The notes under the pieces were generated by a model. The model saw nothing but the letters and a program-made list of their open reading frames with translations, was not told where the DNA came from and did not search any database. Below are positions 40,461 through 42,407 of a stretch of 64,000 nucleotides of DNA, piece after piece. The position numbers and the translations under genes are program-made. Positions within the stretch are counted from its first letter, which is position 1. Each line of letters begins with the position of its first letter. Source of the stretch: a virus (Duplodnaviria > Heunggongvirae > Uroviricota > Caudoviricetes); the IMG/VR virus record IMGVR_UViG_3300037455_000543, positions 347,136-411,135 of that record. The stretch is one strand, 5' to 3'.

Positions 40461-40924
40461 TGAATATCAAAATAATAGATGGTGGTATGATAAGTATCAC
40501 ATTCGAAAACTGTGAATGCATTCGTATTATGGATAGGGCTATTGAACGTATGTGTTTTGATACGGATGGAGAACGTTATGAATATGATAATGAAACCGGC
40601 AAATTGAGAATTAGAAAGATATTAAAAAATTTCTATATTAAGCTTAATTTACGTGAAGAAGATTACTTTTTCCATACCTATAATCGAACTAAGCCAACTT
40701 TTAAAGAAGAAGGTAGTTCATGTATAGATCGATTACGATATTGTGATGATATTACATGTATAGAAATTAACGGTGAAAGTTTTTACGTTCCATTTGATGC
40801 GGAAAAAGTGATTTATGATAAAGAGTTACCTATTCCGTGTTATAAGAATAAATTGCAAAAGAACGAAGAAGGCAAGAACAGTTACGGCCACAATACTCTG
40901 ACAATTTCAATTAACTCAAAGTAA
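40460..40924 (+). CDS. hypothetical protein
   Basis: TAATG coupling. Confidence 0.7.
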   Translation: MNIKIIDGGMISITFENCECIRIMDRAIERMCFDTDGERYEYDNETGKLRIRKILKNFYIKLNLREEDYFFHTYNRTKPTFKEEGSSCIDRLRYCDDITCIEINGESFYVPFDAEKVIYDKELPIPCYKNKLQKNEEGKNSYGHNTLTISINSK

Positions 40925-40946
40925 CGATTAAAAATAAAAATTTCAG

Positions 40947-40992
40947 AAAAACACGTTAAATTTTGTTAACGTGTTTTTTATTTTACTATATT
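40947..40992 (+). terminator. terminator overlapping the promoter of the following non-coding region
   Basis: AAAAACACGTTAA/TTAACGTGTTTTT hairpin, then CTATATT at 40986. Confidence 0.75.
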
Positions 40993-40998
40993 TTGAAC

Positions 40999-41322
40999 CA
41001 CATATTAAAGTCTGATTCCTCGGAACGAAGACCAACTCAATGGAATTGTCGGTAGAGGGTTAGCCATTTTATATCTGGGTTCAAGGTATACTTGAACGGT
41101 TTTAGGCCGTTAAATGAATGAACAGTGACGTATAGATTAGCAACCTATACATATAGCCGCCATGGCTTGACATGATATAGCCGAAGTACAGGATGACCGC
41201 CTCGTAAGCATGTCAGTAAGTCCCAAGAGATTGACACCATGAAGCTTTATGCCAAAAGTGACCAATCGCCTAGTTCCTGCTAGGCTTAGATCTCTCCCAA
41301 TCGCATTATCCAAAAGAATGAT
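40999..41322 (+). ncRNA. candidate structured non-coding RNA, family unassigned
   Basis: Longest ORF-free + strand gap; directly after a promoter; more GC-rich than its flanks; multiple stems. Confidence 0.55.
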
Positions 41323-41325
41323 GTT

Positions 41326-41333
41326 TATAAATA
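41326..41333 (+). promoter_or_regulatory. T4-type late promoter TATAAATA
   Basis: Exact consensus 4 nt before the ATG at 41338. Confidence 0.45.
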
Positions 41334-41337
41334 TCAT

Positions 41338-41496
41338 ATGAAATGTCAAATTGCTTATTACGATATGTTCGGAAACATCAGTGTTTCAAAAGAAGTCTAT
41401 GTCGCTGATGATTGGTCAAAAGAAAAAATAAAAAACTGGTATGAGGAACATGTAAGTTATTGTAAAGAAGTAATAAACATAATGTTTGATAAGTAA
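41338..41496 (+). CDS. small hypothetical protein (52 aa)
   Basis: MKCQIAYYDMFGNISVSKEVY... Confidence 0.5.
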   Translation: MKCQIAYYDMFGNISVSKEVYVADDWSKEKIKNWYEEHVSYCKEVINIMFDK

Positions 41497-41535
41497 GGGT
41501 TGACATAAGTCAACCTTTTTTCTATACTTTATAAT

Positions 41536-41793
41536 ATGAAGTTTAGAATAATTAAAAAGACTTATTATTGCTATGATGGTAAAGCAATAGTTGATTATTA
41601 TCCACAAGAAAAAGGATTATTTTTCTGGCATGATTTCGAAGAATGGCATGGAACTTGCCCATTATCTGTTCGATTTGATACTTTAGAGCAAGCAGAAGGT
41701 TATATTTTAGCTTATATTAAAAATCATACTGAAGAAGGAAATTCAGAAGTAGTGGTTAAAGAATTTGAAGTAGATAATAAACTTTGGAATTAA
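41536..41793 (+). CDS. hypothetical protein
   Basis: Leaderless after a TTGACA stem-loop promoter. Confidence 0.7.
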   Translation: MKFRIIKKTYYCYDGKAIVDYYPQEKGLFFWHDFEEWHGTCPLSVRFDTLEQAEGYILAYIKNHTEEGNSEVVVKEFEVDNKLWN

Positions 41794-42348: not shown

Positions 42349-42407
42349 AATTTAAATTATTTTTACGTGGGTTGACAATTCAACCCATTTTTATTATATT
42401 TAATATT

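Follow-up and report, generated by a model that had tools for sequence, protein, structure and literature searches.

The question raised by this locus is what occupies the single long ORF-free gap in the 64-kb window (the whole stretch of DNA analyzed, 64,000 nt). Positions 40925-41136 lie without any ORF of at least 40 aa, and no other ORF-free gap in the window is longer than 200 nt. On the + strand, the gap is bounded by a 162-aa ORF that ends at 40924 and a 52-aa ORF that starts at 41338, and the GC content across 41000-41300 is 0.39-0.48, compared with approximately 0.29 in the flanks. The first-pass annotation had described a long, GC-richer gap behind a terminator and a promoter, which was borne out by the ORF list, the GC values, the hairpin and the promoter box. 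It had also proposed a promoter-driven, multi-helix phage non-coding RNA of approximately 320 nt, and this proposal is now supported by a conserved -7 box, by covariation and by a conserved span.

When the whole window was scanned with Rfam, a match to RF02947 (cow-rumen-2) was found at 41124-41228 (+) with 108.5 bits (E = 4.4e-20), where the gathering score is 66 bits. This was the single above-cut-off Rfam match in the whole window, and it was complete, extending over model positions 1-106 of 106 without truncation. From 40850 to 41600, with E values up to 10, no Rfam model besides RF02947 came near its cut-off. Moreover, ARAGORN detected neither tRNA nor tmRNA genes in the window, and no known riboswitch, self-cleaving or intron family matched the RNA region in the Rfam scan; these searches agree with the first-pass annotation, which could not match the RNA to tRNA, tmRNA, RNase P or a group I intron. 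The non-coding RNA at 41000-41322 (+) belongs to the catalogued family RF02947 and is therefore not an undescribed class, as had been thought possible, its centre being a full-length member of that family. The RF02947 model spans only the middle third of the conserved RNA of approximately 320 nt. The cow-rumen-2 motif was reportedly first published in the supplement of Weinberg et al. 2017. The Rfam 15 paper names it among the models improved by R-scape (PMC11701678). In the literature searched, no function is given for cow-rumen-2, which appears there only as the Rfam 15 name; the approximately threefold greater length, the pseudoknots and the multi-copy state in jumbo phages are absent from both the Rfam model and that literature.

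The RNA and the signals that surround it are arranged as follows.
40946..40979 (+): terminator-like hairpin and T-run, a 14-pair stem followed by ATTTTACT, which ends the preceding 162-aa gene
40987..40995 (+): promoter -7 box TATATTTTG, one base off TAnnTTTG
41000..41322 (+): whole RNA, an expanded cow-rumen-2 member, the conserved span in four paralogues and 46-115 homologues
41326..41333 (+): TATAAATA box, directly 3' of the RNA
41338..41496 (+): 52-aa ORF, conserved at the orthologous locus L012
41495..41518 (+): first intrinsic terminator 3' of the RNA, overlapping the next promoter-like site

The sequence TAnnTTTG is the -7 consensus of the Bacteroidota primary sigma factor (PMC7366714). 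The exact consensus was found upstream in 30 of 47 homologues, in 29 of which it lies 24-29 nt before the TCGGA anchor, and most of the remaining homologues are one base off, as is this copy. Moreover, the loop of the hairpin at 40946-40979 places TTTG (40962-40965) at the -33 position of the RNA promoter. From the occurrence of this box at a fixed distance, we infer probable transcription by the RNA polymerase of a host that probably belongs to the Bacteroidota. The RNA likely starts at the conserved ACAU at 41000. A module of terminator hairpin, T-run and CTATAnTTT/TATAnT box was also observed to recur between small + strand ORFs (40946-40995, 41495-41528 and 42367-42400), and such hairpin-promoter modules resemble the promoter-early stem-loops of T4-type phages.

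Homologues were gathered by pattern scans and a profile search. A strict first pattern of the 5' domain returned nothing in viral contigs, and looser patterns succeeded, the scans for the 5' domain yielding 56 viral and 114 metagenome stretches. The collection comprised 49 distinct full-length homologues from viral contigs and 115 after metagenome contigs were added (46 clusters at 90% identity). In a 46-sequence alignment, a fold of 66 pairs in 13 helices, two of which are pseudoknots, was tested against 500 shuffles and slid controls. The domains and helices of this fold are listed below.
41008..41064 (+): 5' hairpin domain, near-invariant, with internal loop GGAA/GUA and apical loop ACUCAA
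41012-21 with 41055-63 (+): H1, 99.5% paired
41026-28 with 41049-51 (+): H1b, in the 5' domain
41032-34 with 41041-43 (+): H1c, in the 5' domain
41065..41123 (+): junction domain, containing H2, Pa, H3 and PK1
41065-69 with 41112-16 (+): H2, 83% paired, with this copy one column off in the alignment
41070-75 with 41085-90 (+): hairpin Pa, double changes in 6 of 6 pairs
41095-99 with 41107-11 (+): H3, 98.5% paired
41079-82 (Pa loop) with 41120-23 (+): pseudoknot PK1, double changes in 4 of 4 pairs, 81.7% paired
41124..41228 (+): core, equal to RF02947, in which all helices covary
41130-35 with 41145-50 (+): hairpin A, 97.8% paired, 6 of 6 pairs changed on both sides
41163-74 with 41209-25 (+): hairpin B, 94-99% paired, 12 of 14 pairs changed on both sides
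41182-86 with 41201-04 (+): inner helix of hairpin B
41125-27 with 41198-200 (+): pseudoknot PK2 (G-C 20, U-A 18, A-U 4, C-G 3)
41226..41322 (+): 3' domain, with a closing helix, hairpins X and Y, an invariant UAGGCU block and a tail
41226-32 with 41289-95 (+): 3' closing helix AGAGAUU/GAUCUCU, clear here and weak family-wide
~41235-41260 (+): hairpin X, variable
41268-73 with 41280-85 (+): hairpin Y, conserved, 76.5% paired

Standard pairs filled 92.5% of the cells, compared with 73.0% in the shuffles and 32.7-41.6% in the slid controls. Covariation among the homologues, which had been named earlier as a check on the RNA, gave a score of 0.514 in the 46 sequences, compared with 0.172 in the shuffles and 0.056-0.089 in the slid controls; none of the 500 shuffles reached the observed value of either measure. 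Pairs changed on both sides numbered 45 of 66, compared with 39.2 in the shuffles and 17-25 in the slid controls. H1 contains three covarying pairs (U-A/C-G/A-U; A-U/U-A/G-C/C-G). Furthermore, the top 12 places of a mutual-information scan that was blind to structure were all taken by the proposed helices, and the same scan added the pair G41140-C41181 (columns 235/281; G-C in 35 sequences and A-U in 10), which links the loop of hairpin A with the second UAGCCG and has C41141-G41180 beside it. These comparative data show two pseudoknots and a loop-to-internal-loop contact that tie the parts of the RNA together, and the core is rich in invariant unpaired bases. The minimum free energy of the whole stretch was no better than that of shuffles (z = -0.10 on the + strand and -0.61 on the - strand), an outcome that the first-pass annotation had set beforehand as speaking against its RNA. 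The case for structure therefore rests on comparison and not on thermodynamics, and the comparative evidence outweighs the folding energy.

The stems originally proposed for this copy fared differently when they were placed in the alignment. Covariation supports AACGG/CCGTT (41095-41111), GTATAG/CTATAC (41130-41150) and TGACATG/CATGTCA (41168-41215), which correspond to H3, hairpin A and a part of hairpin B. The stem GCCTAG/CTAGGC (41268-41285) is present as hairpin Y but has weaker support, as given by its proportion of paired cells, and AGAGAT/ATCTCT (41226-41295) is clear in this copy, where 8 of 200 tail shuffles match its score, but weak family-wide, the closing helix of the 3' domain scoring no better than shuffles in most lineages. 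Other stems are replaced by different pairings: GTCT/AGAC with TTCC/GGAA is not conserved, and 41012-21 pairs with 41055-63 instead; GTTCAAG/CTTGAAC likewise gives way to the pseudoknot between GUUC (41079-82) and GAAC (41120-23); and instead of AGCC/GGCT, the family keeps a pairing of GGC at 41164-66 with 41220-23, in which G-C is exchanged for A-U and C-G for U-A. The repetition of ATATAGCCG was rightly noted: its two occurrences are at 41151-59 and 41175-83, and the family keeps each of them as UAGCCG.

Several resemblances to known elements were also considered and rejected. The RNase P P4-like AAGUC/GGCUU shows no covariation and clashes with H1 and hairpin Y; in the sarcin-ricin-loop-like AGUAC...GACCG, G41186 takes part in a covarying Watson-Crick pair with C41201; the group I intron S-element-like GAUAUAGUC is without a model match; the CsrA-site-like CAGGAUG occurs only once; and the tRNA D-loop-like GUCGGUAGAG, a resemblance to the eye, was dropped.

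The same alignment bears on the proposal that there is no RNA gene here, the minus-strand ORF 41137..41349 being coding or the stems being products of chance. This ORF is an open frame of 70 codons, the longest stop-free stretch lies on the minus strand in most homologues, and the folding energy equals that of shuffles. When the frame is anchored on the invariant core, though, it is interrupted at different places and remains open for 24-35 codons in many homologues, so that the ORF, whose conservation and translation had been named at the outset as speaking against the RNA, is not conserved. Moreover, the indels of the RNA alignment are not in threes, compensatory changes were found in 45 pairs, and the Rfam covariance-model match has an E value of 4e-20. 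We attach almost no probability to this proposal.

The 3' domain contains repeated elements, which in this copy are the following.
41247..41258 (+): UUAUGCCAAAAG, a unit that occurs twice, this first occurrence covering the loop and 3' strand of hairpin X
41306..41316 (+): UUAUCCAAAAG, second occurrence of that unit, within the 3' tail
41262-69 and 41297-304 (+): second repeated word, CCAAUCGC

The unit, of 11-12 nt and with the word UUAUnCCAAAAG, is thus present twice in the 3' domain of this copy. Throughout the family, a short word in or beside hairpin X appears again in the tail, always the same distance away, and its letters vary by lineage (CCAAAAG, CAAAAAG, CUAAAAG, CCAAAAAGA, CAAAAAAGAA, AGAAAAAAG, ACAGAU, ACGGAAUAU, CCAGAA, GGUCCAU and GACGAUA). 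The longest shared word had a mean length of 7.66 nt within one RNA and 5.58 nt between lineages, and the observed mean was matched in 0 of 2000 permutations. Units that change in step in this way fit either two sites for one partner or two strands that compete for one partner strand. A search within the RNA for a common complementary partner of the unit found none that was consistent. In several lineages the first copy of the unit lies partly in a loop and not in a stem, and a U-run comes after the tail unit in the type II copies.

The manner in which the RNA ends and the next gene begins differs among the homologues. This copy, like most lineages, lacks a terminator between the RNA and the next gene on that strand; in some lineages and in the genomic copy c4, an intrinsic terminator stands right after the RNA, ahead of any gene. 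The 3' end of this copy would lie before TATAAATA at 41326, or transcripts would read through to the terminator at 41495-41518. The TATAAATA box, which matches the T4 late-promoter consensus, is directly 3' of the RNA in 33 of 49 homologues and has 125 copies in the genome, approximately 70% of which lie no more than 40 nt upstream of the ATG of a long ORF; this distribution suggests that it acts as a late promoter. The 125 boxes were also seen to be bimodal, the next long-ORF ATG following the box by 0-9 nt or by 20-29 nt, and late transcripts from the 0-9 nt mode would have no leader or almost none. For the 52-aa ORF, no family match was found; as it has no early-type promoter of its own and the first terminator comes only after it, the ORF is probably co-transcribed with the RNA. 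Without a terminator here, transcripts from the RNA promoter would enter the 52-aa ORF up to 41495, which fits a leader and a free RNA equally well. Elsewhere in the family, the downstream genes are often late structural genes, with a baseplate hub (PF12322, phrog_150) in approximately eleven lineages and a tail tube in another. The distance from the RNA to the next ATG ranges from approximately 12 to more than 100 nt among the homologues, and the RNA is thus not tied to a single ribosome-binding site.

A cis-acting leader or switch would account for a part of these observations. The core would sense a ligand or factor, and the 3' domain would toggle early read-through into the downstream gene, its identical units competing for one complementary strand; the target would be the 52-aa ORF here and tail or baseplate genes elsewhere. 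The missing terminator before the next same-strand gene in this copy and most lineages suits such a device, as do the several genomic copies upstream of different genes in the manner of riboswitches, the identical segments that change in step as mutually exclusive pairings would make them do, and the U-run that follows the type II tail unit. However, some members are followed by a terminator with no gene nearby, and where a gene follows, a TATAAATA box at variable spacing stands between it and the RNA. The repeated unit has no consistent complementary partner, its first copy is partly in a loop in several lineages, and the downstream genes share no function beyond being mostly late structural. 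We regard a cis-acting switch, the main alternative, as unlikely, with a real though minor chance of being correct.

On balance, we lean towards a stand-alone, trans-acting RNA, most likely the RNA part or the decoy of an RNA-protein complex. This role is favored because some members are closed transcription units, because the gene that follows is preceded by a promoter-like box of its own, variably spaced, and because the core has many invariant unpaired bases. Under such a mechanism, the RNA would be transcribed from its own -33/-7 promoter by the host RNA polymerase, probably early in infection, and its compact fold with many invariant unpaired bases would act in trans. We consider a catalytic or a self-assembling RNA less likely. 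The 11-12-nt unit that is present twice in the 3' domain would then provide two identical sites for one partner, and the several diverged copies may give dosage or slightly different specificities. A further proposal is that of a new kind of phage RNA device in which the knotted core would read a metabolite, protein or RNA signal and the 3' domain, with its two identical units, would switch folds or bridge molecules, with the effect of gating early read-through into tail or baseplate genes or of forming a ROOL/GOLLD-like multimer; taken as a whole, we consider it doubtful.

The genome that carries the RNA has several copies of it. The source record is 424,163 bp long, has direct terminal repeats and is estimated to be 100% complete; its major capsid protein is of the T4 type (Gp23 family, 228.6 bits), and its 50 tRNAs form seven clusters. 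The phage also has its own tmRNA at genome positions 123310-123660, with the tag ANTYAMAA, and for RNase P RNA the model RF00010 gave no match in the genome at E values up to 1. Matches to RF02947 above the cut-off occur four times, at 388.3 kb (this copy), 235.0, 164.8 and 337.8 kb, the copy at 337.8 kb being on the opposite strand; the three other copies score 104.1, 99.3 and 71.6 bits. An alignment of 750 nt around the four copies revealed old, diverged paralogues with compensatory changes, in which conservation reaches far past the 106-nt model, and each paralogue has same-locus orthologues in related phages. Three copies were found in a related complete phage of 411 kb and four in one of 415 kb, and phage fragments estimated to be 40-55% complete have one or two. 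The multi-copy state, with 3-4 copies in complete phages of 411-424 kb, is a trait of the family.

Four dispersed copies, one of them on the opposite strand, could also be left by a selfish or mobile RNA element, or a linked ribozyme, that spread to several genome sites. The block of conserved hairpin Y has short direct repeats on either side, and a homing-endonuclease gene (phrog_655) stands after one truncated homologue. However, these repeats lie inside the RNA and not at its ends, and the copies are old and diverged, carry compensatory changes and keep their loci in related phages. The RNA has no regular neighbour that encodes a transposase, reverse transcriptase or endonuclease, and no known self-cleaving or intron family was matched. 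A mobile origin of the copies is thus judged improbable.

The positions of the copies bear on a further proposal, in which the RNA would be an origin-associated primer transcript comparable to ColE1 RNA II or to the T4 oriF/oriG R-loop transcripts. There are approximately four copies per genome, and T4 has several origins, a similar number. Copies c3 and c4 (164538-164974 and 337529-338234) fill exactly the two major divergent gene junctions, which are local minima of the cumulative GC skew. Yet this copy and c2 lie within long same-strand gene blocks, the GC skew here tracks gene orientation, and an R-loop needs no strong selection on a tertiary fold, so that a primer function appears highly improbable, even more so than mobility.

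With regard to distribution, a blastn search of the 416-nt region against 50,697 GenBank phage records gave no match, and nearly all of the 115 distinct full-length copies came from viral or metagenome contigs. Among the matches listed in a scan of genomes from 185,579 species, two loci carry the RNA (L140 and L167); the other core-pattern matches in genome contigs were mostly GC-rich chance occurrences, and only these two were accepted as real. The L140 contig (JAFQXD010000042.1, 191 kb) is of phage type and is probably a mis-binned phage contig. It was binned in a Methanobrevibacter assembly from goat duodenum; its RNA is nearly identical to the L007 type and is followed by a gene whose opening, MKSEKLDLN, resembles that of the baseplate hub genes of related copies. 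The RNA is largely restricted to viral and metagenome contigs, and the family appears so far to come from uncultured phages only. A contig labelled as activated sludge (L250; ENA UPTA01000225, 65 kb) contains a member at least 90% identical to rumen-type copies, and either the family extends beyond ruminant guts or the sample took in such material. Incomplete members were observed as well. One (L071:6329-6949, minus strand) is truncated, covers profile positions 15-244 only and is directly followed by a homing-endonuclease-like gene (phrog_655, E = 6e-13); in a divergent variant (L032:5113-5312 and L042), only the middle of the profile (positions 72-242) is retained, and a different sequence replaces the 5' domain. 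A search for empty sites with the baseplate hub protein returned close relatives only.

Among known systems, the small stable RNAs of T4 (species 1 and 2, rnaC and rnaD) are likewise non-coding RNAs of a T4-type phage without an assigned function. They are shorter than this RNA and are encoded in a tRNA cluster, and to our knowledge they have no similarity to it. Large RNAs with many invariant unpaired bases have often proved to be ribozymes, ligand sensors or assemblies, and for that reason new RNA biochemistry in the phage infection of gut Bacteroidota may reasonably be sought in the present RNA. Riboswitch and attenuator platforms are comparable in that identical segments changing in step could compete for one strand and that a same-strand gene follows; unlike for them, neither a ligand nor a consistent partner strand nor an obligatory downstream gene was found for this RNA, and some of its copies end at a terminator. 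The ROOL and GOLLD RNAs are, like this RNA, phage- or prophage-borne, structured, pseudoknotted, stand-alone genes (PMC5737381; 10.1101/2024.12.08.627333), were first seen in rumen or lake metagenomes, and have a function that is likewise unexplained. In contrast to them, this RNA is approximately 320 nt long and not roughly 580-800 nt, its copy studied here is not beside tRNA genes, and no sequence or covariance-model similarity connects the two. The closest system is cow-rumen-2 itself (RF02947), which has the same hairpins and the same invariant loops at 41124-41228 and to which this copy adds a member. The cow-rumen-2 model is without the 5' hairpin domain, the junction domain with PK1, the 3' domain and the promoter, and also without the multi-copy state and the setting in T4-like jumbo phages. 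Like many orphan RNA motifs, cow-rumen-2 has been known solely as a short covariance model, and the pseudoknotted extent of approximately 320 nt, the 3-4 copies in T4-like rumen phages of 410-424 kb and the host-type promoter now supply its proper construct and setting.
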